This document shows, piece after piece, positions 460-61,854 of a stretch of DNA of 64,000 nucleotides; the first letter of the stretch is position 1, and the number at the start of each line of letters is the position of its first letter. The stretch lies in contig CAWIIQ010000001.1 of the NCBI GenBank assembly GCA_963836185.1, forward strand, positions 1,049,424-1,113,423, written 5' to 3'. The notes below the pieces were generated by a model. That model was given only the letters and a program-made list of their open reading frames with translations, made no database searches and was not told the DNA's origin. Made by a program: the position numbers and the translations under genes. The DNA is from Candidatus Krumholzibacteriia bacterium. Its GTDB lineage: Bacteria > Krumholzibacteriota > Krumholzibacteriia > Krumholzibacteriales > Krumholzibacteriaceae.

Positions 460-470
460 AAGGCCTGACC

Positions 471-41734: not shown

Positions 41735-41779
41735 AGGAATTCCATGCATGAAAAACAGGAATTGTAGGGGTCATTCATA

Positions 41780-42317
41780 ATGGCCCCCGTCCCCGTCGTC
41801 CTTGTCGCCTGCGCTCACGAGGAGCTCGGCCGAAACCTCCTGACGATAGCATGGACGCGGAATCGACTGCTCCGATCCCGCGACCGTCCATGTCTCGATA
41901 AGGCCCGAAAGACACTCCTACAGGATGATCTCCGAATCAGGATGTTTCACCGTGAACATTCCGACACTCGATATGACTGAGACAGTCGACCTGTGCGGAG
42001 TGATATCGGGCAGGGATGTCGCTGATACTGAGGGAGACAAATTCGACAGGGCAGGCCTGACAGCCCTTCCCGCAAAGATCATAAAGGCCCCCCTCGTCGC
42101 CGAGTGCCCGGTAAACCTCGAGTGCGAGGTAAAGAATGTAATCCCCGTCGGCGTCCACCACATGTTCATAGGCGAGGTAGTCGCAAAGCACGCCGACAGC
42201 GAGGTCCTCACCGACGGCAAACTCGATTTCTCGAAGATCCCCCTTGTAACGTACGTTAACGGCGAGTACTGGTCCCTCGGAAAGCCAGTCGGAACTTACG
42301 GTTTCTCGAAAAAGTAA
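41780..42317 (+). CDS. flavin reductase-like FMN-binding split-barrel protein; apparent frameshift near 41930
   Basis: N-terminal VVLVACAHEE...TIAWT (ORF 41780) and C-terminal GCFTVNIPT...HMFIGEVV (ORF 41925) together make a typical flavin reductase domain. Confidence 0.55.
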
Positions 42318-42355
42318 TGACAGGAGGAAGGACAGGCGATAAAATATAGAAAATA

Positions 42356-43366
42356 ATGCTCCGGTTGCCATGGGTGGGGAAAGGAAGTGACGACGTGGGC
42401 AATCTAAGGGAAGCTATGCGCCGGGAGCTGCGGCTCCGCAACTACAGTCCGGGCACGATCAGGACATATCTTCAGCACATGACAGAATTCACCAGGCACT
42501 TCGGCCGAAGTCCGTCCGAACTCGGCAGGGAAGAGATAAACTCCTACCTGCTCCACATGACGGAAGTAAGAAAGGTCTCCGCCACATACAGGGACCAGGC
42601 CATAAGCGCGCTGAAATTCTTCTACGGAAGGGTGCTGAAGAAACAGCTCATCATCGAAGAACTCCCACGTCCGAAGAAAGAATTCAAACTGCCGTCAGTG
42701 CTGAGCACAAAAGAAGTAGCTCGGCTCTTCCAGGCAGTCAGAAACCGGAAGCATCTCACCATCCTGATGCTCCTCTATTCCGGTGGTATGAGAGTAAGCG
42801 AAGTAGTCAGGCTCAAACCTGAGGACATCGATCCAGAAAGACACCTTATCAGGGTGCGAGGGGGAAAGGGACGGAAGGACAGGTACACAGTCCTCTCGGA
42901 TACGGCTCTCGATGTCCTCCGTGATTATTACCTGTCATGGAAGCCGGAATATTTTCTTTTTGAGGGAAACAGGAAAGGTTCTCATCTGTCGACAAGATCG
43001 GTCCAGAACGTCGTTTCAGCGGCCAGAAAGCGTGCCGGGCTGAAGAAGAAGTTCAGCACCCATGTTCTCAGGCACAGCTTCGCGACGCACCTCCTTGAAA
43101 GCGGCACCGATTTAAGGTATATTCAAGAACTACTGGGGCACAAAAGTGCCAGGACGACACAGATCTACACACATGTAACACGGAGGGATATCGCACGGAT
43201 CGTTAGCCCGCTGGACAGGATGATGGAGGGGGAAGCAGCGGCGACAGGACCGATCGGAACATCCGAACGGAAGAAATCTCCCACCCACCCCACCCATTTT
43301 ACTGAACGTCCTCGTCGCAAACGAACCAAAAACCGTCAAAACAACGAACCGGACACACACAAATAA
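42356..43366 (+). CDS. integron-type (IntI-related) tyrosine recombinase, co-oriented with the cassette array
   Basis: N-terminal SAM-like domain very similar in pattern to IntI (YSPGTIRTY..., ALKFFYG). Catalytic R...HxxR...Y present (VLRHSFATHLL, IYTHV). C-terminal SPLD. The IntI-specific insertion appears absent by eye. Identification rests mainly on the attC array starting about 460 bp downstream. Confidence 0.7.
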   Translation: MLRLPWVGKGSDDVGNLREAMRRELRLRNYSPGTIRTYLQHMTEFTRHFGRSPSELGREEINSYLLHMTEVRKVSATYRDQAISALKFFYGRVLKKQLIIEELPRPKKEFKLPSVLSTKEVARLFQAVRNRKHLTILMLLYSGGMRVSEVVRLKPEDIDPERHLIRVRGGKGRKDRYTVLSDTALDVLRDYYLSWKPEYFLFEGNRKGSHLSTRSVQNVVSAARKRAGLKKKFSTHVLRHSFATHLLESGTDLRYIQELLGHKSARTTQIYTHVTRRDIARIVSPLDRMMEGEAAATGPIGTSERKKSPTHPTHFTERPRRKRTKNRQNNEPDTHK

Positions 43367-43393
43367 ACTGTTATATGATAGCCGAGAGAGGCT

Positions 43394-43807
43394 ATGAGAA
43401 AGAAATACCGTAAACTTTTCACGATACTATTAGTATCAGCGTTATTGGCTTCTTGTGAAGCCAACGATATTGGAAAGTGCACACATATCCCTGTCGAAGG
43501 AGTCGCAACAATTGTCACAGTCTGAAGAGCGTTCTGAATACCAGGATTGTGGTATGGGGGTTTTATTATACATCGACCTGGCTCCCGATTGTCCAATTTA
43601 CGCTGAAAGATTTCAATACAAAATACTCGACTTCTGACTTTGTACCCCAAAAGATGGGTCGAAGCCGTTGGCTTGATAGAAGGATCTCAGCATAGGTGTA
43701 TTTACTTTGCTAAGGGTGGTCCTTGTCCTAACTATATCGTTTGGGAAGATATAGACGTACAAAGCATTGAAGATTCATGTACTGTGTGGGCTGCGGAATC
43801 ACCATGA
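43394..43807 (+). pseudogene. first cassette gene: lipoprotein of the 'DSCxVWE' family, carrying two compensating frameshifts
   Basis: ATG 43394 after gagagagg. MRKKYRKLFTILLVSALLASCEANDIGKCTHIPVEGVATIVTV (frame 2), then ...IDLAPDCPIYAERFQYKIL (frame 0, ORF 43455), then ...YPKRWVEAVGLIEGSQHRC...IEDSCTVWAAESP* (frame 2). This is collinear with the paralogs at 55813..56269 and 59517..59939. Confidence 0.5.
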
Positions 43808-43831
43808 TTGGGTTATGGGAGCTCGGCCATC

Positions 43832-43972
43832 ATATAACAGCAGTGTTCGCGGCTGCAGGCCTTCGGCCTTTCGCTCAGATGGCCTTTGTCACGGCGGCCG
43901 CAGGGCGACTGCCGCGCCAACCGGGCCTGGCGGCCCGGACGGCCACCTCGCGAACACGACCAATGTTATGTG
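43832..43972 (+). repeat. attC site 1 (type A, ~141 bp)
   Basis: catATAACAGcagtgttcgcgg...ctcgcgaacacgaccaatGTTATGt. Inverted cores with extrahelical bases. Confidence 0.8.
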
Positions 43973-43997
43973 ACATGACATTGAGATAGGAGGGGTA

Positions 43998-44593
43998 ATG
44001 AAAAGGCTATCTGCGGTCATATTCTTACTATTGCTGATGACGTCCGCTAGCGTACTTGCTGACTCGGTACAATTTACCATACGAGTTCATCGAGACGTTG
44101 AGGATATCTCTGCGCTAGAGGTGAAAACCTTTGAGATCATTTCGGGGGGACTATTCCCAGAAACTGAACTAGAAACAGAGATGAAGGAGAAGATTCGAGC
44201 ACGGATCGAGTCTACTGGATTAGTCTATGATCCTTCAAAGAAGGACCTCTTTGTTGGTGTTATCTTTGTTGGCTTCTCCGAGCATGGGAACAAGCTACCT
44301 GGATTGGAAGATTGGCCAAGTCAAACCCATGGATCTGTTGATTCAGCTTATGCGCTTCTAACTGCAGAATCTGAGAATACAGAAGGGCAAGGTGCATGGA
44401 GGTCCATCCAAATCCACATTCTTGCACCACCTATCAGGAAGTTCCGGTTCGGATCTGGACGGGCTCGGTTACATACGATGGATTAGAGACCGATACTGAT
44501 AAACTGGCAAATGTGATGTTGGAACAATTACTTCTTGAATATCCCGTGCCATCTGGAAAGCCAGAGTTGCGAGAAGTGATATTAAGTGAATAG
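43998..44593 (+). CDS. cassette 1: secreted hypothetical protein, frameshifted (ORFs 43998..44486 and 44396..44593)
   Basis: Signal peptide MKRLSAVIFLLLLMTSASVLA. Two overlapping frames both look protein-like. Confidence 0.4.
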
Positions 44594-44610
44594 TGGAGGG
44601 GTGTCACGTC

Positions 44611-44752
44611 ACATAACAGAGTGTTCGCGGCTGCAGGCCTTCGGCCTTTCGCATAGATGGCCTTTGTCACGGCGGCCGCAGAAGCGCCCGCCGCGCCAAC
44701 CGGGCCTGAGGGCCCGGACGGCCACCTCGCGAACACGACCAATGTTATTCGC
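44611..44752 (+). repeat. attC site 2 (type A)
   Basis: Near-identical to site 1. Ends GTTATTC. Confidence 0.8.
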
Positions 44753-44777
44753 CACCTAACCTTGCAAAGGAGATAAT

Positions 44778-44945
44778 GTGGATGTATTGAAAATGTTGCT
44801 TCCTTTCGGGATTGCCTTTTTAGTGTTCTTAGCTATAAGGGAAGTAATGTGCTGGTACTTCAGAATTAACAATATGCTCAATATGCTCAATAGTATTGAT
44901 ACCAGTTTAAAAAGAATGTCGGGAAGGACAGACAGTTCTTCTTAA
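44778..44945 (+). CDS. cassette 2: small (55 aa) hydrophobic protein
   Basis: Not in table (<60 aa). VDVLKMLLPFGIAFLVFLAIREVMCWYFRINNMLNMLNSIDTSLKRMSGRTDSSS. GTG or internal ATG start. Confidence 0.3.
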   Translation: MDVLKMLLPFGIAFLVFLAIREVMCWYFRINNMLNMLNSIDTSLKRMSGRTDSSS

Positions 44946-44976
44946 GACAATACAATTGATTTTACGGTTAGGCGGC

Positions 44977-45117
44977 GTATAACAGTGTGTTCGCGGCTGC
45001 AGGCCTTCGGCCTTTCGCTAAGATGGCCTTTGTCACGGCGGCCGCTAGAGCGCCCGCCGCGCCAACCGGGCCTGGCGGCCCGGACGGCCACCTCGCGAAC
45101 ACGACCAATGTTATCTG
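44977..45117 (+). repeat. attC site 3 (type A)
   Basis: gtATAACAGtgtgttcgcgg ... caatGTTATCt. Confidence 0.8.
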
Positions 45118-45194
45118 AAACCACACCTTATCGTGGTATAATTCAGCGTTGCGTGGATTCTGGCCACAAGACACTGTGCCCCAAGGATGATGAG

Positions 45195-47132
45195 ATGAAG
45201 AGCAAGAACCTCACAAGAGTACTGATCGCCTGCCTATTTATCATGATCTCTAACGAAATATCTGCTCAATGGTATGACTTGGGGAATCCTGTGTTCATTG
45301 ACCCGGGGATGTTTCAGGACACACACATTTCTTACGATGGCAATGGAGGCCTGTTCTTTACGTGGTGCGATTGGAGAAACGGGGGAGCCCCTTATCAGGC
45401 GGATGTCTATGCACAATATGTGAATGCTGACGGAATAGCACAATTCGGACTGTCGGGGATGCCAATCGATACGATCAGCGGCAATCAGTACAAGGCTAAT
45501 GTTTCATATGTGGGAGGGGATTGCGCGGTGATTGTATGGTCGGACCTGATGGATGGATATAAATTGCGAGCTCAGCGCATTAATTCCGAAGGAATGGTAT
45601 TCTGGGGAGACAGAGGTGTGGATGTATCAGAACAGTCAGGAATGGGAGAAGTCGCATCAGTGATTCCAGATATTAATGGAGGAGCCATAATATCCTGGAG
45701 AAATTTTTATGTTTGGATTCAACGGCTGGATTCACTGGGCAATCGGATGTGGGGGGAGGACGGAATAAGAATTAACAATATTGGGGACACTGTTGGCAGT
45801 GCTCCTGCAATTGTGAGTGATGGGGCGGGAGGCGCAATAATCGTATGGTCAGACTATCGCTCTGGGAGCATGACGCATGACATATATGCTCAACGTGTTA
45901 ACTCAAACGGGGATGAGTTATGGACAGACGGGGGATTGCCGATTAACAACAATGAAGGAGCTCAAACTCAACCCTCAATAGTGTTTGACGGAAATAACTC
46001 CTTTATCAGTTGGTTTAACAATACATGGGACATCGGTGTTCAGAAAATAGATCACGATGGTAATCTCTTATGGAATGTTAATGGAGTATATATTAGTCCA
46101 ATAGAGCCCAGACCTAAGTATCGAGCCATGGCTGCCGATAATCATGGAGGTGTGATTGCCGCTTGGGAAGATTTTAGGAATACGAGTTCAACTGAATCTG
46201 ATATTTACGCTCAGCGGATTCGCTCAGATGGGGAGATTGCATGGGATATAGATGGTATTGCGATTTACATTGGTGGAGGGGATCATCAACAGCCAGCAAT
46301 TTCTACCACATCATCAGGCGATGCTATCATTGTTTGGACTAATTATTATGGAATTTACGCACAACGAGTGGATACCAGCGGAGCAATATATTGGCCAGAA
46401 TACGGTGAAAACATTTCAAGAGGGCCAGGGTGCCAACACTGGCCACTTATCCAGAACATCGATGACAAAGAATTATTCGTTGTGTGGAATAAGAATGAGA
46501 ATGATGCATGTTATGGAAACGACGATTTATATGTTCAAAAGATTGATCTTGAAGGACACATTGTAGGCACATTTCTAGATCAGGCCGAATGGTATTGTGT
46601 CTCTGATGAAATATGTTTGAAATGGTCGATTGTCTTATCCGCAAATAATCTTGAATTCATTATACTGCGCACATTAAGCGGAGAGCATAAGTACAGAGAA
46701 GTTGGCCGGATTATTGGATTCGAACGTCAATCCGAATTTTGCTATATTGATAGCACATGTAAACTTGGGGAAAAGTACATATATCGTGTTATCGCTTCCA
46801 TGGAAGATGATGAGATGTTGCTTTTTGAAACTACAACAATCCTGATGCCAAATCTAAAGTATGTTCTTCATCAGAATTATCCGAATCCGTTCAATCCAAT
46901 AACCAAAATCTCATACAGTCTGCCAAAACAGTGCATCGTCAGCTTAAAGATATACGATATTATGGGAAAAGAGATTGTATGCCTTGTTAACAATCAATTG
47001 CAGCAAGGTGAACAGGTAATACATTGGGATGGTAAAAACCACTTCGGAGATCTTGTTTCTTCCGGAACATATTTTTGCAAGCTTTTTGCTGGAAAACAGA
47101 CAAAAGTAATTAAATTGATATGTCTGAGATGA
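45195..47132 (+). CDS. cassette 3: secreted repeat (beta-propeller-like) protein with T9SS C-terminal sorting domain
   Basis: Signal peptide MKSKNLTRVLIACLFIMISNEISAQ. About 8 repeats of ...GGAIIxWxD...IYAQRxNxxG.... C-terminal QNYPNPFNPITKISYSLP...IHWDGKNHFGDLVSSGTYFCKL = T9SS CTD. The table ORF start at 44985 lies inside attC 3 and is rejected. Confidence 0.7.
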   Translation: MKSKNLTRVLIACLFIMISNEISAQWYDLGNPVFIDPGMFQDTHISYDGNGGLFFTWCDWRNGGAPYQADVYAQYVNADGIAQFGLSGMPIDTISGNQYKANVSYVGGDCAVIVWSDLMDGYKLRAQRINSEGMVFWGDRGVDVSEQSGMGEVASVIPDINGGAIISWRNFYVWIQRLDSLGNRMWGEDGIRINNIGDTVGSAPAIVSDGAGGAIIVWSDYRSGSMTHDIYAQRVNSNGDELWTDGGLPINNNEGAQTQPSIVFDGNNSFISWFNNTWDIGVQKIDHDGNLLWNVNGVYISPIEPRPKYRAMAADNHGGVIAAWEDFRNTSSTESDIYAQRIRSDGEIAWDIDGIAIYIGGGDHQQPAISTTSSGDAIIVWTNYYGIYAQRVDTSGAIYWPEYGENISRGPGCQHWPLIQNIDDKELFVVWNKNENDACYGNDDLYVQKIDLEGHIVGTFLDQAEWYCVSDEICLKWSIVLSANNLEFIILRTLSGEHKYREVGRIIGFERQSEFCYIDSTCKLGEKYIYRVIASMEDDEMLLFETTTILMPNLKYVLHQNYPNPFNPITKISYSLPKQCIVSLKIYDIMGKEIVCLVNNQLQQGEQVIHWDGKNHFGDLVSSGTYFCKLFAGKQTKVIKLICLR

Positions 47133-47179
47133 TTATATACTCAATTTGAGCACTATACTTATAAGTCAGGTGTGGCTTC

Positions 47180-47321
47180 AGATAACAGAGTGTTCGCGGC
47201 TACAGGCCTTCGGCCCTTCGCTCAGATGGCCTTTGTCACGGCGGCCGCTAGAGCGCCCGCCGCGCCAACCGGGCCTGGCGGCCCGGACGGCCACCTCGCG
47301 AACACGACCAATGTTATCCGA
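47180..47321 (+). repeat. attC site 4 (type A)
   Basis: gATAACAGagtgttcgcgg ... caatGTTATCCg. Confidence 0.8.
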
Positions 47322-47539
47322 CATCTTATTGAAGCTTAAAGAGGTGAAATTGCTATGAAAATGATGAAGCCAATTGTTGTTCTGATAGTACTGATACTCC
47401 TGTTCTCGGTCGCAAAGTATGTCAGAGTTCAAGCATTTCATATTAGAAAGTGAGAGCAAGGTTGAGCTTCCTAATTATTTTTATGATGACCTAGAGCCAT
47501 ACGTTACAACAATAGATCGCCAGCATTCTGACAAAGAGG

Positions 47540-47986
47540 ATGATTCGCCTTGCTGAATCTGTTTATCCACCAAGAAGGAAGATGCTTGAGAAGCATCCAG
47601 GTTTGCCAGAAGAAATGGTAGCAGATTCACTGTGGGTGGCTGAAGAGCACGGCGATTTAAAAATACCCTACACACTAACTGCGAGTGCAGTTCGGTACTA
47701 TATTGATCTGATGAAGAGGTACGAAAAGAAGGACGAAACGCTCGATAGTATCCCGAAAAATGCAAAGTTAACATATAAAGCAGACATGCACGGTCCATCA
47801 ACTTTCATTATTAATGGTGAATTGTATGAAAATGTTAAGGTTGTAACCCTTGAGTTAAGCTGGTCCACCTATACTAATGCTTTGAATGCTGGAGGATTCA
47901 GTATTGTCAAGTTTGTGATTTTCGACAGGGAGAAGAATATTCTGGGTGTGTTTGGGGATGGATTCCCTGGAGAATGGGCGTCATGA
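47540..47986 (+). CDS. cassette 4: hypothetical protein (148 aa)
   Basis: Table ORF. No recognised domain. A 32-aa hydrophobic mini-ORF (47355..47453) precedes it. Confidence 0.45.
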   Translation: MIRLAESVYPPRRKMLEKHPGLPEEMVADSLWVAEEHGDLKIPYTLTASAVRYYIDLMKRYEKKDETLDSIPKNAKLTYKADMHGPSTFIINGELYENVKVVTLELSWSTYTNALNAGGFSIVKFVIFDREKNILGVFGDGFPGEWAS

Positions 47987-48014
47987 ACATTGGGAATATC
48001 CAATAGAAGACGTC

Positions 48015-48155
48015 GGATAACAGAGTGTTCGCGGCTGCAGGCCTTCGGCCTTCGCTCAGATGGCCTTTGTCACGGCGGCCGCTGGAGCGCCCGCCGCGCC
48101 AACCGGGCCTGGCGGCCCGGACGGCCACCTCGCGAACACGACCAATGTTATTCGC
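48015..48155 (+). repeat. attC site 5 (type A)
   Basis: ggATAACAGagtgttcgcgg ... caatGTTATTCg. Confidence 0.8.
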
Positions 48156-48559
48156 CATGTGGCAGATGAATAAATTTAACTTCGATTTCTTCTTATTTTT
48201 TAGGACTCTTCTTTCCCCGCAGTACAGCCCCATCCAGCCTCAGGGTGACTTCCGGAGTCTCTAAAGCCTGATCGATCCAGTACCTCATATTTTCTCCGAT
48301 GTTAAGGCCTAGACTCGTGCCGTAACGGGCCTGAGGGTGGCTTGCGGCTGAGACTGAGATCCTCGATCCTGAGGTTTTAAGGGGCCGAGATTGGTAGGGG
48401 AGAGCTCGTAAGGAACTTGCTTTCAACGATCGGGGCAATTCAGCGTACGACTTCGGGTCGCGCTGTCGCATCTTTATCAGCCAAGGGTTGGCTGAAAGAC
48501 TATTGAACCGGAGAGATTAAAGGATTAGATTTATAGGTGAGGGGTGATCTAGTATGAAT
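48156..48559 (+). other. cassette 5: ORF-less conserved element, copy 1 (candidate structured RNA / mobile 5' leader)
   Basis: About 404 bp between attC 5 and attC 6. Shares long conserved blocks with 51800..52215. Ends in SD-like aggtgagggg + ATG reading into attC 6. Confidence 0.5.
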
Positions 48560-48675
48560 TCCACACGGCGTATAACAGAGGTGTTCGCGGCTGCGCATGT
48601 CACCCGGCCTGCAGAGCACGCCGGGCGCCAATGCTTCGCGTACACCGCCTGCGGCGGCGTCGCGAACACTCACAA
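48560..48675 (+). repeat. attC site 6 (type B variant, ~116 bp)
   Basis: Same R''/L'' (tATAACAGaggtgttcgcgg) and L'/R' (cgcgaacactcacaatGTTATAC) but a different central region. Confidence 0.75.
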
Positions 48676-48740
48676 TGTTATACGATAAATGCCCTTATTC
48701 CTTTGACATATTCAATTCTACATAGATAGAATCTCCATAC

Positions 48741-51639
48741 ATGTTAGGGGAAACAATCTCACATTATGAAATTCTCGAGAAGCTCGGCGAGGGCGGGATG
48801 GGCGTAGTCTACCGCGCCCGTGACACGAAGCTCGACCGCGAGGTGGCTATCAAGCTCCTGCCCCCGCACCTGAGCTCCGATCCCGAGGCGGTAAAGAGGT
48901 TCGTCCATGAGGCGAAGACCGCCTCGGCCCTGAACCACTCCGCTATAGGCGTCATCCACGAGATAGACGAGACGGATGACGGCCAGACGTTCATCGCAAT
49001 GGCCCTCTACGAGGGGGGACTCTCAGGGAGAAGCATCGACAGCGGCAGCATGACATCTAGGCGAAGCAGTAACCATAGCCTCCCAGATAGCCTCGGGTCT
49101 CGACCAGGGCCCACGAGAAGGGGATAGTCCACAGGGACATCAAGCCGCAGAACATACTTCTGACCAGAGACGGCGAGGCGAAGATAATCGACTTCGGCCT
49201 AGCGAAGCTCGCCGGAAGGACGAAGCTGACGAGGGACGGGAGTACGCTCGGCACTGCCGCCTACATGTCCCCCGAGCAGGCGAGGGGAGAAGAGGTCGAT
49301 CACCGTTCGGACATCTTCTCTCTCGGGACGATCCTGTACGAGATGCTCGCCGGTGAGCCACCATTCAAGGGGGAGCACGAGGCGGCGTTGCTCTACGGGA
49401 TAGTGCACGAGGAGCATGAAGAGATATCGGAGAAGTGCGGGGGCATAGCACCGGAATTGTGCAATGTGGTCGGAAAGACGCTGAAGAAGGAAAAGGAAGC
49501 AAGGTATCAGAACGCGGCGGACCTGAAAGCTGAATTGAAGAGGTCGAGCACCGGCAGTGTCGATGAGGGCGGACCGAGGGATACGAAGGACGCTGGAAGA
49601 GGTAAAGGGTTCTGGATAGGCATTGCGGCGGTCACCGTGACACTCACAACTGCCGTACTTCTCGTAATGACCGGACGTGAGCCGGCGCCGCTTACCGCTT
49701 CGGAGATGACTCTCGCTGTGGTTGATTTTAATGACCTAGCAACAGAACCGGATCCTATAAAATCCAAGACGATTACAGAGCTGCTAAATACCTCCCTGGG
49801 AGATTTCTGTCCGATACGCGTTCAGAGCCCGGAACGAGTAAGGGAATGTCGAAGACAGCTTTTCGGTTCAACTGAAGCGCAGATAGAGGAAGGGCAGGAA
49901 CTGGAGATCGCGCGCAGGAGCGAAGCGACCTATTTGCTTACTGGCAGCATCAGTGTCGTTGGCAACGACGGTTTTATCTCTTGGAGGCTCATAGATGTAC
50001 TAAGTGGGACTATCATCAAGGCCGGAACAGTCGAACCAGGTGAGATGATGGCAGTAGTTGATAAGATCGTGGAGGTCGTATTGCCGGAGATCGCAGAAGC
50101 TTCGGGAGTTGAGCAGACTGCAGAGCAGGTTTCCGTGGCACAATCTCGACATCTTCACAGCAGGCGTTTGAGCATTACGTTAGGGGTAAGATAAATCATG
50201 ACAGCGATCGTCCAGTCGAAGCACTCGATGAATACACGAAAGCTGTCGGATTAGATTCCAGTTTTGCTCTTGCCTGGTTTGCTATGTCTAGACTCTACTA
50301 TGGTGCCATGATGATTAGGTATGATCCGGCACTTTATAATAAATACAATGAGCTTGCCTTAAGGTATGAATCCAGGATGGGCACCAAGGAGAGGATGCAG
50401 CTTCGTGCTATTAATCTTGGAGGAGTCAAAACGATAGAAAAACTCAAGGAAATCCTCGAGCTCTGGCCTGATGACCGCGAGACGCTGCAGATGCTCGTCC
50501 TCAGAACCCACTATAATTGGATGCAAAAAGAATGTATCGAGTACTCTCGAATCGGATTGACGCTATACCCGGAAGACCAGGTTTTCGGAGGAAGTATCTA
50601 TATCACATCTCTTAATAATTTGGGTCTAAGCCAAGAAGCGATGAAGGCGTCCAGAGAATTTATCAGAAAATATCCTGACGATTCGGCAGCTTGGCGTTCT
50701 CTTGCCGAGACATTTGTGGTCATGGGGCAACCGGACAGTGCCGAGGCGATCTGCAGAATAATTTTGGAGAAATATCCTGAAGGCAGCCAGAATGCAGAGG
50801 CAAGGCGGATGATAGCACGATGTGCATATCTTGCAGGCGATCTAGATGAATCGATTTCAAGGTATGATAGATTATTGTCAGACGCGAACCTGGATGAATC
50901 TACTCGTCAGGAGATTCTTTCTAACTATACTCACATTATAGATCTTACTTATGTATATCGAGAAGCTGGCCGCTACTACGACGCCTTGCGGACCTTGAAT
51001 GAGGCAAGACCGTACTTCGGCAACCGACCTGATCGCTGGGAATTACAAATGGGCTATCTGCTAGTAGATATTGGCAGGAACAAGAATGCGTTGAAACTCG
51101 CTGAAGAGATGCTTGCATCAGATAATATGCCAATGCAGAGGTATGCCAGACGATTCATGGGCAAGGCGCAAGTTAATAATGGTGATATCCAAGGTGCTCA
51201 GGAAACTGTATCGATACTGGATGGACTTGGCATAGTCAGGGGACCTATCTACAAGTACCATTCATTTTTCACTCAGGCATATATTGCATTGGCAAGGAAT
51301 GATGCTTCAGTGTCTCTAAAGCATCTTGATGATGCGGCCCAGATAGTGGGCTTCTCATACTGCATGTTCGGAATCGAGCTGAAGACATTGCAGGCGGAGG
51401 CGAACAGACTGGCAGGGGACCTGGAGGCGGCAGCCTCGATCCATGAAGAACTGCTGAGGATTCATGGCGGACATGCATTGTCACACTTCGAACTCGGTAA
51501 ACTGTATGAGGCAATGAGAAGAACGGACGAGGCAAAACTGCACTATAATAGATTCCTAGAGATGTGGAATAACGCTGATGATGGATTACCTCAACCTGCA
51601 CTCGCGAGGGAGAGACTGACAGCGCTTAAAGGTGTTTAA
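48741..51639 (+). pseudogene. cassette 6: degraded Ser/Thr protein kinase fused to a TPR domain (at least 3 frameshifts between 49010 and 49140)
   Basis: Kinase subdomains [27 protein letters not shown] and SPEQ are present but spread over three frames. The C-terminal TPR region (50284..51639) is intact in one frame and contiguous with the kinase region in sequence. Confidence 0.55.
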
Positions 51640-51658
51640 ATAGAGCAGGGCTTTCATC

Positions 51659-51799
51659 GCATAACAGTGTGTTCGCGGCTACAGGCCTTCGGCCCTTCGC
51701 TCAGATGGCCTTTGTCACGGCAGCCGCAGGGCGACTGCCGCGCCAACCGGGCCTTGAGGCCCGGACGGCCACCTCGCGAACACGACCAATGTTATCCGC
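51659..51799 (+). repeat. attC site 7 (type A)
   Basis: cATAACAGtgtgttcgcgg ... caatGTTATCCg. Confidence 0.8.
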
Positions 51800-52215
51800 T
51801 ATGTGGCAGCTGATTGAATTTATCTTCGATCTTTTCTTTTTATTGGGACCCTTCTTCCCGCCCATCCCAACCATTACCAGCCGGAGGTCGACTTCCGAGA
51901 GTCTCTAGAGCTAGTTCTGCAAGGTGACGAGTCCAACCCCTGTAAGAATAATGCCTCTATAGATGATCCGGCCTGAGGGTGGCTTGCGAGGCGCGACTGA
52001 GATCCTCGGGTCAAGAGGCTTTAAGGGCCGAAATAGGGGTAGGGGAGCGATCGTCAGGGACTTGCTATCATCGGTCTGAGGCAGGTTCATCTCTCGACTT
52101 CGGGAGGCGCAGTCGCAGTTCTATCAACGGGTCAACGCCGAAAGACTATTGAAAGTTCGAGATTAACGGTATAGATTTAGAGGTGAGGGGTGCCTATATA
52201 TGAATTCCACACAGC
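51800..52215 (+). other. cassette 7: ORF-less conserved element, copy 2
   Basis: Collinear with 48156..48559 (blocks ...atgtggcag..ttcgat..ttctt..., ggcctgagggtggcttgcg, gactgagatcctcg, cgacttcggg, aaagactattgaa, gagattaa.gg.atagattta.aggtgaggggtg...atgaattccacac). No conserved ORF on either strand. Confidence 0.5.
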
Positions 52216-52346
52216 GGATAACAGCAGTGTTCGCGGCTACGGGCCTTGAGGCCCTCGCTCAGATGGCCTTTACCGGCCTTTGGCGCGCCGGCCAACCGGG
52301 CCTGAGGCCCGACGACCAACTCGTTAACATGACCACTGTTATGGAG
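52216..52346 (+). repeat. attC site 8 (degenerate type A)
   Basis: ggATAACAGcagtgttcgcgg ... ctcgttaacatgaccactGTTATGG. L' arm mutated. ATG of the next gene lies inside R'. Confidence 0.65.
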
Positions 52347-52868
52347 GGACGTTTTAGAAAATGTAACATACGAATCATTCTGGTTGTTCTCGTCTTAACT
52401 TCAGCTCTTATATCCTGTGGAGAGGATAGCTGTGAGTGCCCTACACCTAATCCTATTGAATACACCAGCGTTGTGTTCTACTACAAAGATCATCCATATT
52501 GCTATTCAAGTACTGCTGGATTAGAGGTAGAGCTTTATGTCGGTGATGAACTCATAGGGTATTGGCATTATGGCTCTAATCCAGCAGATCCAAATCTAGA
52601 TTATCCTAATTCGCAACCTTTTCCGGTTGAGCTCGGAAGTGCCTTGAACCTTGAATTCAGGTATTGGGATAAATCAGGTCATGAGATGAGAGACACAGCA
52701 AATCTCATCATGGATGATGAAGATTGCACTTACGTCAGTTTCTTTGCCGACATAGAAAATCCCTGCCTGGGTGCTGAGTTATGTGATAGTTGTATTGTTT
52801 TTGAGATCGATGAAAACATGAAGTGTGAGGGTGCTGATTCAATCTATGTCGCTGTAGTGACTAATTGA
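52341..52868 (+). CDS. cassette 8: Cys-rich lipoprotein
   Basis: MEGRFRKCNIRIILVVLVLTSALISCGEDSCEC.... The ORF is also open upstream through attC 8 to the ATG at 52200 of the conserved element. Confidence 0.55.
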   Translation: MEGRFRKCNIRIILVVLVLTSALISCGEDSCECPTPNPIEYTSVVFYYKDHPYCYSSTAGLEVELYVGDELIGYWHYGSNPADPNLDYPNSQPFPVELGSALNLEFRYWDKSGHEMRDTANLIMDDEDCTYVSFFADIENPCLGAELCDSCIVFEIDENMKCEGADSIYVAVVTN

Positions 52869-52881
52869 TGGAGACAGCGGC

Positions 52882-53024
52882 ATATAACAGTGTGTTCGCG
52901 GCTACGGGCCTTGCGGCCCTTCGCTCAGATGGCCTTTGTCACGGCGGCCGCAGAAGCGCCCGCCGCGCCAACCGGGCCTGGCGGCCCGGACGGCCACCTC
53001 GCGAACACGACCAATGTTATCCGC
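52882..53024 (+). repeat. attC site 9 (type A)
   Basis: catATAACAGtgtgttcgcgg ... caatGTTATCCg. Confidence 0.8.
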
Positions 53025-53038
53025 AAGCGTATTATGAT

Positions 53039-53434
53039 ATGAACAAGTTCCCAGCAATATTTTTTTTGTCACTCCTTCTGGCTTCCTGCCGAGATCCTTT
53101 CGCGCATGAATGGGAAAACTTATATCAGCTCAGCGCAGATCAGATTATTCTACCCGATACTGCTCAAATATTTCAACCGATGCAGGTCAAAGTGCAGGTT
53201 ACTTTAGATACATCTAATCATAATTACAAAGACCAATATATCGAAACAACACCAGATGGCTATCTGATAGTGCTGATTGGTGTAATAGAAGATACGAGAT
53301 TTCCAGATAATGACCCGGATCCCAGAACAGAATGGCATTCTTTTAACCTTATCCCATTTAAGAAAGGAGAAGTAATCATTGAGGGGAAACGAGTCAATTC
53401 AGAGAATCTTATTGATTCAGTGTATGTTCAGTAG
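53039..53434 (+). CDS. cassette 9: lipoprotein, 'EWHxF' family member 1
   Basis: MNKFPAIFFLSLLLASCRDP... contains ...PDT...TEWHSFNLIP.... Paralogous to 54398..54760 and 54947..55336. Confidence 0.6.
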   Translation: MNKFPAIFFLSLLLASCRDPFAHEWENLYQLSADQIILPDTAQIFQPMQVKVQVTLDTSNHNYKDQYIETTPDGYLIVLIGVIEDTRFPDNDPDPRTEWHSFNLIPFKKGEVIIEGKRVNSENLIDSVYVQ

Positions 53435-53447
53435 TGGGCACGCCTGC

Positions 53448-53589
53448 GCATAACAGAGTGTTCGCGGCTACGGCCTTCGGCCTTTCGCTCAGATGGCCTT
53501 TGTCACGGCGGCCGCTGGAGCGCCCGCCGCGCCAACCGGACTTGGCGGCCCCGGACGGCCACCTCGAAAACACGACCAACGTTATACGA
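53448..53589 (+). repeat. attC site 10 (type A)
   Basis: gcATAACAGagtgttcgcgg ... ctcgaaaacacgaccaacGTTATAC. Confidence 0.8.
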
Positions 53590-53646
53590 AAGGCCGGGAA
53601 GCGATAAAAAAGAACCTTGACAGATATGCATATATGATGCATACTG

Positions 53647-54207
53647 ATGCATATGAGAACTACACTGAATATTGACGATGATCTGATTCGCAAGGCAGCG
53701 AAGATGACAGGGATCAGCGAGAAGACTTCCCTGGTACGCCTCGGGCTTGAAGCATTGATCGCTCTTGAGAGCGCGAGAAGGCTAGCAGCTCTTGGCGGCA
53801 CAGAGAAAGATCTTGGCCCTGATTCCTCGCAAACGAACGAGTTCGTGAGTATGATCCTGGCTGATACATCTGTATGGATCGATCATCTTCGCAATGGAAA
53901 CAAGCGGATGGCTCTTTTTCTGAACGAAGGTGTCGTTTTGTGTCATCCTTTCATACTCGGGGAATTGGCCTGTGGGAACCTCAAAAACAGAGCTAAAATA
54001 CTCGATATGCTTGCTTCCCTTCCGACAATGCCAGTTGCAGAGCACAGTGAAGTGCTTGATTTCATTTCCCGATACAAATTCCAAGGGAAGGGTATAGGGT
54101 GGATCGATGCCCATCTGTTGGCATCAACATTTCTGGCGAAAAGCCGAATCTGGACTCTCGACAAATCTTTACTAAAGATAGCAAAAGACCTGAAGGTCTC
54201 AATATAG
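53647..54207 (+). CDS. cassette 10: VapB-like antitoxin + PIN-domain VapC toxin in a single open frame
   Basis: N-terminal MRTTLNIDDDLIRKAAKMTGISEKTSLVRLGLEALIA (VapB/DUF2191-like). C-terminal MILADTSVWIDHL...GELACGN...IDAHLLA (PIN acidic residues). No stop between the two parts. Confidence 0.7.
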   Translation: MHMRTTLNIDDDLIRKAAKMTGISEKTSLVRLGLEALIALESARRLAALGGTEKDLGPDSSQTNEFVSMILADTSVWIDHLRNGNKRMALFLNEGVVLCHPFILGELACGNLKNRAKILDMLASLPTMPVAEHSEVLDFISRYKFQGKGIGWIDAHLLASTFLAKSRIWTLDKSLLKIAKDLKVSI

Positions 54208-54239
54208 GGCAATCAAAAGGTTTAGTAGCCGGCCACTTC

Positions 54240-54382
54240 GTATAACAGAGTGTTCGCGGCTGCGGGCCTTGCGGCCCTTCGCTCAGATGGCCTTTGTCAC
54301 GGCGGCCGCAGGAGCACCCGCCGCGCCAACCGGGCCTGGCGGCCCGGACGGCCACCTCGCGAACACGACCAATGTTATCCGA
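54240..54382 (+). repeat. attC site 11 (type A)
   Basis: gtATAACAGagtgttcgcgg ... caatGTTATCCg. Confidence 0.8.
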
Positions 54383-54397
54383 AAGCGCGGGATATGT

Positions 54398-54760
54398 ATG
54401 AATAAAAAAATCGCATTATCGATCCCATTACTTCTTGTAGTTGCATGTAATCTATTCAAGCCACCTGAAAAGATACAAACATGGGCTGATGTCGAACAGA
54501 TTGTTGTTCCTGATACTGTTGACTATTTCGAAGCTTTCGAGATCAGCGCTGAAATTTCAATGGACCATACATGTAAGTATGTAGGTCCTGTGCTGGAAGA
54601 AACTTCTGAGGGCTGCTCCATTACCATTATCGTTGAATCTGTGGAAGTGAGCTTTCATGAAAAGGATATTTCTGAGTGGCATACCTTTACTCTGAGACCT
54701 CTCGAATTGGGATCTTACATCATCAGGGTGAAAAGTAAGAATGTGGAAGATTCTTGTTGA
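54398..54760 (+). CDS. cassette 11: lipoprotein, 'EWHxF' family member 2
   Basis: MNKKIALSIPLLLVVACNLF... contains ...PDT...SEWHTFTLRP.... Confidence 0.6.
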   Translation: MNKKIALSIPLLLVVACNLFKPPEKIQTWADVEQIVVPDTVDYFEAFEISAEISMDHTCKYVGPVLEETSEGCSITIIVESVEVSFHEKDISEWHTFTLRPLELGSYIIRVKSKNVEDSC

Positions 54761-54789
54761 TTCAACTTACGTTCGTTAGATGCGCCATC

Positions 54790-54932
54790 GGATAACAGTG
54801 TGTTCGCGGCTACAGGCCTTGCGGCCTTTCGCTCAGATGGCCTTTGTCACGGCGGCCGCAGGAGCGCCCGCCGCGCCAACCGGGCCTGGGGGCCCGGACG
54901 GCCACCTCGCGAACACGACCAATGTTATGCGA
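54790..54932 (+). repeat. attC site 12 (type A)
   Basis: ggATAACAGtgtgttcgcgg ... caatGTTATGCg. Confidence 0.8.
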
Positions 54933-54946
54933 AGGCGAGGGGAACA

Positions 54947-55336
54947 ATGAAATTAGCGGTTGGAATAATTGCAATTATCGTTATTTGCTCTTCCTGCGAA
55001 GATCCACCAGTAAAAGTATGTGACCGACCAGTAATGTTGGAAGTAGAACAGTTGATGGCTCCGGATTCTTGCAGGTTAGGTGAGCAGGCACAATTACAAG
55101 TCGAAGTAATTCTTAACGGTTCAAGTTATAGTTATTTCGGCCCCGACATTAACGACACAGATTCGGGTTGTAGAATAAGGATTATGGGAGAAAAAGATGA
55201 ATGTGCACTTAACACTCCTTGCATTTGCTACGAGTGGCATTCGTTTGTTATTTCCCCCTCACAAACGGGAATATACATAATAGAGATAATTAATTCTCAA
55301 GCTGATGATTTAGCGGATACAATAACAGTGTATTAG
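54947..55336 (+). CDS. cassette 12: lipoprotein, 'EWHxF' family member 3
   Basis: MKLAVGIIAIIVICSSCEDP... contains ...YEWHSFVISP.... Confidence 0.6.
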   Translation: MKLAVGIIAIIVICSSCEDPPVKVCDRPVMLEVEQLMAPDSCRLGEQAQLQVEVILNGSSYSYFGPDINDTDSGCRIRIMGEKDECALNTPCICYEWHSFVISPSQTGIYIIEIINSQADDLADTITVY

Positions 55337-55346
55337 CTGTGCCATC

Positions 55347-55486
55347 GGATAACAGAGTGTTCGCGGCTGCAGGCCTTCGGCCTTTCGCTCAGATGGCCTT
55401 TGTCACGACAGCCGCAGGGCGACTGCCGCGCTAACCGGGCCTGGCGGCCCGGACGGCCACCTCGCGAACACGACCAATGTTATGTG
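55347..55486 (+). repeat. attC site 13 (type A)
   Basis: ggATAACAGagtgttcgcgg ... caatGTTATGTg. Confidence 0.8.
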
Positions 55487-55512
55487 CAATGCTGTGCATT
55501 AATTTAAAGGGG

Positions 55513-55677
55513 ATGAAGTTGAAGAAACTATCTCTGATCATCGGAATTCTCGCATTAGCCGTTGCAATAATCATCTTCATATATGCTTCTGGTGCTAGGC
55601 GAATTTATAGCGGCCTCTTATTTATATTGATAGCTATCATCCAATTCACTTTTGCTCTTCGAAAAGGTGATAAATGA
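55513..55677 (+). CDS. cassette 13: small two-TM membrane protein (54 aa)
   Basis: MKLKKLSLIIGILALAVAIIIFIYASGARRIYSGLLFILIAIIQFTFALRKGDK. Confidence 0.4.
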   Translation: MKLKKLSLIIGILALAVAIIIFIYASGARRIYSGLLFILIAIIQFTFALRKGDK

Positions 55678-55693
55678 TCAATAAGGGCACTGC

Positions 55694-55768
55694 ACATAAC
55701 AGAGTGTTCGCGGCTGCGGGCCTTGCGGCCCGGACGGCCATCTCGCGAACACGACCAACGTTATGCGA
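55694..55768 (+). repeat. attC site 14 (short variant, ~75 bp, central region deleted)
   Basis: acATAACAGagtgttcgcggctgcgggccttgcggcccggacggccatctcgcgaacacgaccaacGTTATGC. Confidence 0.7.
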
Positions 55769-55812
55769 AAAGCCGCAGACGTTAAAACCTACCCCTGGGA
55801 GGAGATGATGTG

Positions 55813-56269
55813 ATGTTGAAATCAGGAATGTTCATCATTGCCGCTGTTTTTTTTATTCTCGCTCCTTATTTCTTGTGAGGATGAAGAAGGCATCATTTGT
55901 GGGGGAGAGTGCCTTTATCATGAGATACCAGGCACAGCATCTATTATTTCTGTTACTGATATTGATGGATCTACCTATTGTGGAGATCCTGTCGAGGTGA
56001 TTTACAACTTTACTCCAGATGATCCAAGCGATATTGATCCAGACTATTTGACGATTTGGCCACTCGATAATATTTACTACAAGATAGGTCAAAACAATCC
56101 GCCACGAAGATGGGTTGAAACGCATGGACTTCTGGCAGGAACAGACCATCCATGTACAAGATTTAGGATTTACAAGGGATCTTGTGTGCCTGTTGGATAC
56201 AATTTTGATGGCATAGATGATTACAGTGTCTCTGATTCATGTGATGTATGGGAGCAAGAGATACCATAA
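55813..56269 (+). CDS. cassette 14: lipoprotein of the 'DSCxVWE' family; frameshift in a T8 homopolymer at ~55848
   Basis: ATG 55813 gives MLKSGMFIIAAVFF. After removing one T of the T8 run this continues ...LFSLLISCEDEEG... (lipobox). C-terminus ...DSCDVWEQEIP. Confidence 0.5.
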
Positions 56270-56293
56270 GTAAACTTGATTACTGCGACCACC

Positions 56294-56426
56294 GCATAAC
56301 AGAGGCATTTGCGTACTCGCCTGGCTTCGCCAGAACTAGGCTGTCACGGCCGTTGCAATTTGAGTGCATGATGATAGATAAATAGGGGATTGCGGCTGCG
56401 CCGCGAATGCTCACAATGTTATACGG
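56294..56426 (+). repeat. attC site 15 (type B-like variant, diverged arms)
   Basis: gcATAACAGaggcatttgcg ... cgcgaatgctcacaatGTTATAC. Shares the ...ctcacaatgttatac end with site 6. Confidence 0.65.
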
Positions 56427-56452
56427 CATGCAGTTCATGGCAGGGGAATAAA

Positions 56453-56995
56453 TTGATCCATATAGTATTTGATCTCGAAGCTACCTGCTGGGAACAGGGC
56501 ACAACGCCGAGTCGAATGGAAATTATTGAAATTGGGGCCACAAGGCTGCACCCTGATACATACGAAATCGATAGTGTGTTCTCTACCTTTGTGCGACCTG
56601 TCGAGGAACCTGAGCTAAGCGACTTCTGCAAGAACCTAACATCCATCCAACAAACTGACGTCGATCTTGCGCCTGTTTTTCCCGAGGCGATGGATATGTT
56701 CTTTGCCTGGATTGATGCTAGTGAAGTTACCTTTTATTCCTGGGGCTACTATGATATCAAGCAGATCCGAATGGATTACCAGCGTCATGGAAATTCTGAG
56801 CCGGCGGCATTCAGTAGCCACGTTAATTTGAAGAAGCTATTTTCTGAGATCTATGGCAGGAAGCCTTGTGGAATGCGGAAGGCTCTAAATATACTTGGGT
56901 TGGGGCATGAAGGGACGCATCATAGGGGTGTGGATGATGCAAAGAACATTTCCAGGATCGCTAAAGTAATTCTTCCGGAATATTATGGCTCCTGA
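56453..56995 (+). CDS. cassette 15: DEDDh-type 3'-5' exonuclease (DnaQ-like/ERI-1-KapD-like)
   Basis: Exo I IHIVFDLEAT, Exo II ...FYSWGYYD, Exo III HHRGVDDAKNISRI (H-x4-D). TTG 56453 is the likely start. The longer table ORF starts inside attC 15. Confidence 0.7.
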   Translation: MIHIVFDLEATCWEQGTTPSRMEIIEIGATRLHPDTYEIDSVFSTFVRPVEEPELSDFCKNLTSIQQTDVDLAPVFPEAMDMFFAWIDASEVTFYSWGYYDIKQIRMDYQRHGNSEPAAFSSHVNLKKLFSEIYGRKPCGMRKALNILGLGHEGTHHRGVDDAKNISRIAKVILPEYYGS

Positions 56996-57042
56996 AGACC
57001 TGAGTATTGGGGAACTGGACTTTGAATAGGTGGCTGCACGCC

Positions 57043-57105
57043 GGATAACAGTGTGTTCGCGGCTGCAGGCTCAGGCGGCCACCTCGCGAGCATAAGCAAT
57101 TGAAG
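57043..57105 (+). repeat. attC site 16 (truncated, R' core mutated): array terminus
   Basis: cggATAACAGtgtgttcgcggctgcaggc|tcaggcggccacctcgcgagcataagcaattg. Central part missing. GTTAT replaced. Confidence 0.6.
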
Positions 57106-57216
57106 CCTTGTATTTCAATTGCTGTACGATATACTTTGCCGGGCGAAGTACTCTATTACAGGTATCCAGTCAGATATGCATATCAATGGCAGCGCTATAC
57201 AGGAGTTGAAATATAG

Positions 57217-59436
<2,220 letters not shown>

Positions 59437-59516
59437 AAGGAAAGATTAAGGTATCGATTAGTTTAATAGATGCTCATGAGGTCAGGAAAATCCTAAATCT
59501 CTTTCAGGAGAGGGGT

Positions 59517-59939: not shown

Positions 59940-59942
59940 GGC

Positions 59943-60359: not shown

Positions 60360-60438
60360 AATATATAGACTCACAAAATCTGTAGGACAATGCGGAAATA
60401 CCACTTGTCAGAATCTGTGATGACGGTATTTTCAAGGT

Positions 60439-61053: not shown

Positions 61054-61107
61054 ACACCAGTCATATTCAATGCTTATAATGCTGTCCGTTATACTAGCGG
61101 AGGTTAT

Positions 61108-61590: not shown

Positions 61591-61638
61591 AGTCGAACCG
61601 GACGATTATCCATGACCAGGAGTAGAGAGAAGAGAGTG

Positions 61639-61854
61639 ATGTACAGGATCTTAATCGCTATAGTAGTTTTAGTCTCGATTGCTTCATGTACGGGAACTGC
61701 CGGGGACAGCTCGAAGGAGAAGCTGACTCAGCGTGAGAGGGACAGTATCCTCGCTGAGACCGATCTTCCGGGAGCGGGCGTCGTCGGAAAAGCTATCGAA
61801 GCGTCAGATTCCTCAGCCGCGAGAGCCAGGAGGCTTGATGAGCAGTCTGACTAG
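61639..61854 (+). CDS. small lipoprotein (71 aa)
   Basis: MYRILIAIVVLVSIASCTGT lipobox. Internal ATG of table ORF 61612. Confidence 0.45.
   Translation: MYRILIAIVVLVSIASCTGTAGDSSKEKLTQRERDSILAETDLPGAGVVGKAIEASDSSAARARRLDEQSD

Follow-up and report, generated by a model that had tools for sequence, protein, structure and literature searches.

Sedentary chromosomal integrons, such as the Vibrio cholerae superintegron with its V. cholerae repeats (VCR) and the integrons of Xanthomonas, occupy a fixed chromosomal locus and carry a long array of highly homogeneous attC-type sites of ~120–140 nt. Between the sites lie mostly small co-oriented open reading frames (ORFs) of unknown function, including toxin–antitoxin cassettes, and cassette content varies between close relatives. 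The attC bottom strand forms part of the leading-strand template in 25 of 30 sedentary integrons (PMC5371416). What defines an integron integrase is an additional domain (PMC9668308). The field treats this helix domain, I2, as the innovation that allows a Xer-like recombinase to handle folded single-stranded attC, and natural intermediates have been noted as lacking (PMC7790495). Here, we describe a cassette array in a 64,000-nt stretch of genomic DNA (contig CAWIIQ010000001.1, positions 1,049,424 to 1,113,423; hereafter the window) that resembles sedentary integrons in its locus, sites, and cassettes, the strand placement of attC included as far as it can be judged from GC skew. The array is probably a sedentary, chromosomally fixed integron-like cassette platform, whose folded sites would be recombined by an adjacent IntI relative lacking the I2 domain.

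In contrast to sedentary integrons, the integrase at this locus has no I2 (additional) domain and falls outside the IntI clade, its gene points the same way as the cassettes, an ATAAC/GTTAT R box takes the place of RYYYAAC/GTTRRRY, and the spacer asymmetry is larger (3 vs. 7 nt), with no single extrahelical base in the L stem. Gene direction and an attI 3′ of the gene are shared with the inverted-integrase integrons of the Treponema denticola group and some Spirochaetota, where integrase gene and cassettes are transcribed the same way and attI is found downstream of the former (PMC4889954, PMC9668308). Those enzymes, however, are classed as IntI by survey criteria that include the IntI-specific domain. 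IntegronFinder would presumably label the array a CALIN (attC sites in a cluster without an integron integrase) if its attC model fires, and CALIN is the best label available, not complete integron, because no protein of the window can match intI_Cterm. CALINs are read as degraded integrons with ~5–6 sites on average, whereas here an intact, conserved recombinase and an attI-like junction head the array in many genomes. A Xer-like recombinase without I2 that passes the XerA model, together with discrete gene modules bounded by recombination sites, is also reminiscent of archaeal XerA–dif and of the plasmid dif (pdif) modules of Acinetobacter. dif and pdif sites are 28-bp double-stranded sequences of 11-6-11 organization, and their orientation alternates in pdif modules. 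In contrast, the sites described here are imperfect palindromes of 69–165 nt with covarying stems, all in direct orientation on one strand. Finally, the passages of Smyshlyaev et al. (2021, PMC8138268) that deal with 'integron-like' simple tyrosine recombinases describe the insertion as 'not fully conserved' in this subgroup. The window protein fits its insertion-less members, to which those passages attribute no cassette arrays or sites.

Sixteen imperfectly palindromic sites span positions 43,834–57,105 on the + strand. Fifteen are complete (69–137 nt, ATAAC to GTTAT) and one is a decayed terminal copy. The left-end 18-mer ATAACAGNGTGTTCGCGG matched 13 times (0.12 expected) and the right-end 23-mer CTCGCGAACACGACCAATGTTAT 12 times (0 expected), with every match on the + strand. 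A looser scan combined with a covariance model recovered the weak 16th site (57,042–57,104, 17.5 bits) and no further copy on either strand of the 64 kb beyond mirror matches. Eleven sites measure 135–137 nt from ATAAC to GTTAT (141–143 nt with flanks) and are 89–98% identical to one another, whereas sites 6, 8, 14, and 15 have diverged (110, 125, 69, and 127 nt, respectively). Site 16 retains the left arm and L′ and lacks GTTAT, carrying CAATTGAAG where other sites have CAATGTTAT. C or T occupies the seventh position after GTTAT. An earlier reading made from the letters of this DNA alone (the sequence-only reading) had counted 16 same-strand copies of about 141 bp; number and strand are borne out, and the length applies to the 11 similar sites. 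The sites (65% GC) separate 16 low-GC cassettes, with inter-site units of 281–3,114 bp whose unique parts are 38–52% GC, as compared with 58% in the flanks. Low GC had been noticed in that reading as well, although its figures (0.17–3 kb and 40–45% against 63%) needed correction. An Rfam scan of 41–64 kb at E ≤ 1 gave zero matches. The covariance model built from these sites proved very family-specific, with 1 match across 62 other loci, and is unfit as a general attC detector. Home-made hairpin scanners for 'canonical attC' were dropped, as they were too strict or too noisy on control loci.

The + strand of a site reads ATAAC, 3 nt, GTGTTCGCG, a variable and branched centre, CGCGAACAC, GACCAAT, and GTTAT. 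The outer (R) stem comprises 5–6 bp and the inner (L) stem 9 bp, and 3 unpaired nt lie opposite 7 in the spacer. The sites thus display the attC order R″–L″…L′–R′ with AAC/GTT ends, an unpaired spacer, a variable terminal structure, and the attC size range of 57–141 nt. As the sequence-only reading anticipated, the R and L stems pair when the bottom strand is folded. For site 3, the bottom strand folds at −51.5 kcal/mol (z = −7.9) and the top strand at −40.8 kcal/mol (z = −3.9). Among 81 sites from 28 arrays, many of them related and hence not 81 independent observations, the bottom strand was the more stable in 76, by a mean of 6.9 kcal/mol. Moreover, when 26 sites from five loci are aligned, the outer ATAAC/GTTAT stem is invariant, while four of the nine inner-stem pairs have changed on both sides. 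In this alignment 93% of inner-stem cells pair, in contrast to 21–50% when the partner column is slid, and the covariation score was attained by none of 500 shuffles. The diverged site 15 carries a covarying L box, GCATTTGCG/CGCGAATGC. This array and its sisters also contain other L boxes that stay complementary (GATATGCG/CGCATATC, AGGCATTCCCG/CGGGAATGCCT, and GGTCTTGCG/CGCAAGCCC), and further types are seen in L005 and L125. Inner stems that differ in sequence and remain complementary suggest recognition by structure rather than by sequence, which is a hallmark of attC. In the main site type the 9-bp L stem is perfect, with no single bulged base, and the asymmetry sits in the spacer and in a side hairpin. 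A supposed opposite polarity of the spacer asymmetry relative to canonical attC was rejected. The control locus L065 (Calditrichia), a genuine integron with an I2-bearing IntI and divergent cassettes, has the same polarity, its bottom strand reading 5′-CCTAAC-5nt-L′…L″-3nt-GTTAGG.

The 'variable' centre holds a conserved element, TTGTCAC-hairpin-GCGCCAA(C) (for example at 45031–45065; columns ~56–95 of alignment A3), which is kept across site types, namely the main type of the window, site 6, and sites of L007 and L005. Such conservation suggests a further function, for instance in binding an accessory protein or in nucleating the fold.

The array origin is occupied, as the sequence-only reading stated, by a tyrosine recombinase gene, which is the only one in the window (Table 1). 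Its 336-aa product matches the catalytic and SAM-like domains (PF00589, E-value 4e-42, and PF13495). It passes the archaeal XerA equivalog model NF040815 (244.8 bits, cut-off 220) and remains below both the integron-integrase model TIGR02249 (230.9 bits, cut-off 265, with the match in two stretches) and NF011946 (155.5 bits, cut-off 435). The best PDB sequence match is VchIntIA (IntI4, 2a3v). In this alignment residues 191–207 (17 aa) stand opposite VchIntIA residues 180–238 (59 aa), leaving a gap of 42 aa, and the gap amounts to 42–50 aa against IntI1 and 11 other canonical IntI. The segment ALPxALxRKYPxA…DPRSGxxRRHH is missing from the recombinase, as it is from XerC and XerD. No helix separates H182–195 from H213–227 in the AlphaFold2 model (mean pLDDT 77.7, core >90), which matches the folds of IntI4 (E = 5e-16) and XerA (E = 2e-15) almost equally well. 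In a neighbour-joining tree of 101 sequences, which leaves deep branching unresolved, the I2-bearing IntI are monophyletic in 100 of 100 bootstraps. The recombinase lies outside that clade, within a large I2-less radiation that is far nearer to IntI than to E. coli XerC/D. Because it lacks the I2 domain, scores under the TIGR02249 cut-off, and falls outside the IntI clade, the enzyme is not an integron integrase as that family is defined. It is nevertheless intact and under purifying selection: the catalytic residues R146, K171, H236, R239, H262, and Y271 do not vary across the family alignment, and dN/dS against relatives is 0.14–0.16. The best identity among the matches listed in a genome-collection scan was 51%; these matches served as outgroups, canonical IntI controls, and distant I2-less loci.

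Residues ~290–336 (DNA 43232–43366) form a basic, low-complexity C-terminal tail whose length varies among close relatives. The DNA encoding the tail overlaps the attI-like region, and in locus L001 the homologous DNA falls after the stop codon. A conserved N-terminal extension of ~80 aa (ITVAFxYNPxxVxKIKTIxGxRWHPExKYWSxP; P0062, P0064, P0065, P0071, P0081, P0110, P0113, and P0118; columns 30–100 of alignment A1), found in many I2-less family members from bacteria and archaea, is lacking from the window protein. Integrons transcribe their cassettes from a Pc promoter located in intI or attI, with intI facing away from the array. Here, sigma-70-like promoter matches around the gene were weak and confined to 42317–42345 and 43350–43379, in a scan that leaves out promoters of the Fibrobacterota–Chlorobiota–Bacteroidota (FCB) group.

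The first cassette begins at an attI-like junction that overlaps the recombinase stop codon. GTTAT starts 4 nt past the stop, and the conserved motif, CAAATAAACT directly followed by GTTAT, ends 8 nt past it; the attI-like sequence including the junction reads CAAATAAACTGTTAT. The same motif was found 3′ of the recombinase gene in six related loci (L001, L008, L095, L105, L115, and L124), and the conserved part is followed by seven different, unrelated first sequences. In addition, one related contig (L002) ends exactly at the GTTAT of the junction, and one cassette family was found both at this position and in mid-array. These comparisons point to an attI site that adjoins the recombinase gene and would receive incoming cassettes.

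A metagenome scan with the right-end 23-mer yielded 28 contigs, and the covariance model found 92 sites on these and on the loci of relatives. Placement of the sites on a single strand holds on each metagenomic contig too. Grouping of the 121 inter-site segments from 29 arrays gave 100 families, and 88 of these have a single member. The most widespread family is that of cassettes 6 and 8, with eight members in six arrays, and it lies directly at the attI-like junction in L115 and L004. The VapBC cassette (cassette 11 of the window) recurs in L008, L114, and L102, behind a different upstream site type in each of the four arrays. Its homology starts directly after GTTAT and extends to the next site. 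Furthermore, the closest cassette homologues share the downstream site variant, as seen for site 6 of the window and the first site of L116 (546–662), which is expected if each cassette owns the site 3′ of it. The cassettes thus have the properties of discrete mobile units, each an ORF with its own attC, that appear to have been shared and reordered between related arrays.

The locus itself appears to be chromosomally fixed, judging by synteny: the upstream order HAD–GNAT–PP2C–RNR–Flavin_Reduct–recombinase is common to the window, L004, L008, L122, and L124, and cassette content differs at each of these loci. An unchanged location and 16 sites, 11 of them homogeneous, agree with what is expected of a sedentary array of more than 10 sites. 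Site identity is 93.9% between genomes and 94.2% within the array, although dS of the neighbouring gene is 0.69, indicating that the sites are kept alike by selection, exchange, or conversion. GC skew is positive across the whole window with no sign change, so the locus does not lie at a skew switch; by the usual GC-skew rule, the bottom strand of the sites would form part of the leading-strand template. In three of the four sites of L008 (11520–13655) the left ATAAC has lost its AA (ATCAG or TGCAG) and the rest of the site is kept. These sites may have been inactivated, freezing their cassettes in place.

The named relatives of the recombinase come from metagenome-assembled genomes (MAGs) of Krumholzibacteriota. 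Together with the synteny and domains of the type IX secretion system (T9SS), this agrees with a host in the FCB superphylum, as the sequence-only reading had suspected, and presumably in Krumholzibacteriota. That reading had also assigned T9SS C-terminal domains to the proteins at 26,700–30,075. These native proteins do carry such domains: FlgD_ig was above its cut-off, and Por_Secre_tail scored 25.1 bits, just under the cut-off of 27.

The recombinase and the array are linked in every relative with enough sequence (L001, L005, L007, L008, and L122), and the architecture is kept down to ~60% identity. More distant I2-less recombinases also head arrays, with other site sequences. In L125 (Nitrospiraceae), an attI-like GTTATCTG is followed by three sites of the form CAGATAAC-2nt-L″…L′-5nt-GTTATCTG with covarying inner stems, and L021 (Spirochaetota) has a single site of this form. 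The recombinase gene of L050 (Gilvibacter, Flavobacteriaceae) is co-oriented with seven sites that bear canonical-looking 7-bp R boxes, and L045 (Firmicutes MAG) has the classical divergent layout. In L045, positions 229–4733 contain unusually long repeats of ~280 nt bounded by GCCTAAC…GTTAGGC-type boxes, two of which have a further conserved insert.

We consider the following mechanism to be the probable one. Each cassette would consist of an ORF and its own attC-like site, and the site would fold as single-stranded DNA, most likely from the bottom strand, into a hairpin with an ATAAC/GTTAT outer stem, an unpaired spacer of 3 nt opposite 7 nt, an inner stem of 8–11 bp, and a variable tip. Such a hairpin would imitate a recombinase core site with two arms. 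The tyrosine recombinase next to the array, which is probably the enzyme acting on these sites, would cut and exchange strands at or beside the right-end GTTAT. Cassettes would leave as circles by attC × attC recombination and would enter the double-stranded attI-like sequence, CAAATAAACT followed by GTTAT, that abuts the 3′ end of the recombinase gene, to be read in the direction of that gene. Since the recombinase has no I2 domain, site recognition must differ from that of VchIntIA and IntI1, and the lack of single extrahelical bases in the L stem is in line with such altered recognition.

Several points weigh against this proposal. Cassette recombination and capture have been reported to require I2, to which the ability to recombine single strands is attributed (PMC7790495). 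Cury et al. (2016, PMC4889954) found 21 recombinases near attC without intI_Cterm and with no IntI elsewhere in the replicon, of which four, placed between IntI and Xer, adjoined <3 sites, and they concluded that such recombinases are not IntI. Extrahelical bases comparable to those of canonical attC were not identified in our sites, and the crossover is not pinned to the base, because the terminal site has no GTT. In addition, the flanks of many I2-less relatives from Bacteroidota and Alphaproteobacteria are free of arrays, so recombinase and array are associated only in particular lineages.

The strongest competing explanation, which we nonetheless consider unlikely, is that the array is a CALIN on which a canonical, I2-bearing IntI from another part of the genome acts in trans, with the adjacent Xer-like gene being housekeeping or unrelated. 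A gene that passes the XerA model and is syntenic like a core gene would fit this scenario, and non-IntI recombinases near attC are usually unrelated to the sites (Cury et al., 2016, PMC4889954). However, only 4 nt separate the stop codon from the array, which begins at a conserved attI-like motif with a different right side in each of seven genomes, and the gene-then-array layout recurs not only down to ~60% identity but also in four other phyla with different site sequences. No canonical intI was found in the 64-kb window or in the 20-kb loci of L005, L007, and L008. Furthermore, the contigs of relatives repeatedly break right after the recombinase gene, which also speaks against a chance neighbour.

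An improbable alternative keeps the same recombinase as the acting enzyme and dispenses with folding. Ordinary double-strand exchange of the Xer/dif or pdif kind would take place at an L′-7 bp-R′ core, CGCGAACAC-GACCAAT-GTTAT, and some different function would fall to the palindromic left arm, for example as an accessory site or a transcript hairpin. Tyrosine-recombinase core sites usually have spacers of 6–8 bp, a range that includes the 7 bp found here. The catalytic domain is Xer-like and without I2, and IntI has itself retained an ancestral double-strand activity (PMC4792948, PMC7790495). Nevertheless, L boxes that differ widely within one array and are complementary to their partner arm argue for recognition of a structure, and the folding energy is consistently strand-asymmetric. 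The 7-nt spacer also varies between sites that evidently exchange cassettes (GACCAAT, TCACAAT, GACCACT, and TCAGAAC) and is thus a poor fit for homology-dependent double-strand exchange. Folded single-stranded DNA is the more plausible substrate.

The explanation given in the sequence-only reading, namely a sedentary chromosomal integron of canonical type with a true IntI, is very unlikely. All features other than the protein are integron-like, and VchIntIA is the best PDB match in sequence and fold. However, the absent IntI-specific domain, the scores below both integrase cut-offs, and the position outside the monophyletic IntI clade refute it on the integrase. The reading was right about the behaviour of the locus, with its directional attC-like sites, attI-like point, shared modular cassettes, and fixed, sedentary position, and wrong about the enzyme that runs it. 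Equally hard to credit is an accumulation of repetitive extragenic palindromic (REP) elements, miniature inverted-repeat transposable elements (MITEs), or intergenic terminator hairpins in a variable island with no site-specific recombination: the sites are GC-rich intergenic hairpins, and site 16 and three L008 sites have decayed, but the copies have a single orientation and none lies outside 43.8–57.1 kb in the 64 kb. Target-site duplications are absent, complete cassettes delimited exactly at GTTAT reappear in different orders as well as immediately at the attI-like junction, and a scan of 41,700–45,200, which spans sites 1–3, gave no terminator at any site and no terminator-like T-tracts.

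If the I2-less platform is confirmed, an evidently active natural system would become available for testing how attC recognition evolved, and the locus may reveal either the origin of integrons or another route by which one can be built. IntegronFinder-based surveys would then miss a class of integrons, or mislabel them as CALINs, in poorly sampled phyla, and a new pair of structure-specific recombinase and site would be at hand for engineering. The 100 families among 121 segments already document a large and diverse cassette pool in Krumholzibacteriota. More tentatively, the arrays in several phyla may belong to a so far overlooked class of 'I2-less integrons', in which the radiation sister to IntI acts on folded attC-type sites; such a class would be either the long-sought stage of integron evolution before I2 or an independent route to structure-specific recombination of single strands. 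We regard this broader proposal as possible and somewhat less likely to be right than wrong. A literature search, whose coverage was incomplete so that an earlier description may exist, found no paper on integrons in Krumholzibacteriota and none on arrays headed by an I2-less integrase.

Table 1. Coordinates of the recombinase gene, the attI-like junction, and the cassettes in the window.
Feature	Coordinates	Strand	Description
Tyrosine recombinase	42356..43366	+	336 aa; IntI/XerA-related, without I2 domain; co-oriented with cassettes
attI-like junction	43352..43374	+	CACACAAATAAACT followed by GTTAT; overlaps recombinase stop codon; putative first-cassette insertion point
Cassette 1	43375..43969	+	Small ORFs only, including 43-aa lipoprotein-like ORF at 43395; site 1 43834-43969
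Cassette 2	43970..44748	+	ORF 43998-44486, 162 aa, no Pfam match; site 2 44613-44748
Cassette 3	44749..45114	+	ORF 44778-44945, 55 aa; site 3 44979-45114
Cassette 4	45115..47317	+	ORF 45153-47132, 659 aa, T9SS C-terminal sorting domain; site 4 47182-47317
Cassette 5	47318..48151	+	ORF 47540-47986, 148 aa; site 5 48017-48151
Cassette 6	48152..48681	+	ORF 48193-48471 (- strand), 92 aa; site 6 48572-48681, 110-nt variant
Cassette 7	48682..51795	+	3.1 kb; three ORFs; site 7 51661-51795
Cassette 8	51796..52342	+	Paralogue of cassette 6; ORF 51911-52090 (- strand); site 8 52218-52342, 125 nt
Cassette 9	52343..53020	+	ORF 52341-52868, ATG within GTTATGG; site 9 52884-53020
Cassette 10	53021..53585	+	ORF 53039-53434; site 10 53450-53585
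Cassette 11	53586..54378	+	VapB antitoxin and PIN toxin 53647-54207 (Pfam); site 11 54242-54378
Cassette 12	54379..54928	+	ORF 54398-54760; site 12 54792-54928
Cassette 13	54929..55483	+	ORF 54947-55336; site 13 55349-55483
Cassette 14	55484..55764	+	ORF 55489-55677, 62 aa; site 14 55696-55764, 69-nt minimal variant
Cassette 15	55765..56422	+	ORF 55838-56269; site 15 56296-56422, diverged type
Cassette 16	56423..57105	+	ORF 56453-56995, DEDDh/RNase_T exonuclease; decayed site 16 57045-57104, no GTTAT; end of array

Nearly all cassettes carry one gene in the array direction, as the sequence-only reading had described, except that the ORFs of cassettes 6 and 8 are on the − strand and cassette 7 contains three. 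The ATGs that it had picked out at 52,341 (within GTTATGG), 53,039, and 54,398 are the starts of the longest ORFs of their cassettes. Most cassette ORFs have no Pfam match; the exceptions are the T9SS protein of cassette 4 (Por_Secre_tail, 30.8 bits, cut-off 27), the kinase and TPR protein of cassette 7, VapB–PIN, and the DEDDh exonuclease, which was also the only match when cassettes and the ORFs at 59–64 kb were searched with PADLOC and PHROGs. The start of cassette 7 is homologous to L119, and its ORFs encode a split Ser/Thr kinase (48741–49127 and 49265–50194) and the TPR protein (50284–51639). The kinase is divided into N- and C-terminal ORFs (48741–50194), and VapB and the PIN toxin of cassette 11 share a single 186-aa ORF; cassette decay or an indel artefact could account for either.

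Upstream of the recombinase, the ribonucleotide reductase is split into overlapping ORFs (39466–40701 and 40418–41734), while relatives have one gene of 755–756 aa. The flavin reductase (130 aa, preceded by a 66-aa ORF) has 186–189 aa in relatives. These frameshift-like native genes at 39466–42317 suggest either indel errors of a long-read assembly or real pseudogenes. On the other side, the array ends with the decayed site 16, and katG (57,232–59,436) comes next. Past katG, GC is again low (46.6%) at positions 59424–64000, a block densely filled with small ORFs of one orientation that has no attC-like sites and no Pfam or PHROGs match except one very weak T4_tail_cap. Directly after site 16 and upstream of katG (57095–57130) there is a perfect 9-bp hairpin, GCAATTGAA-N9-TTCAATTGC, which might be a terminator or a remnant of the right half of an ancestral attI.

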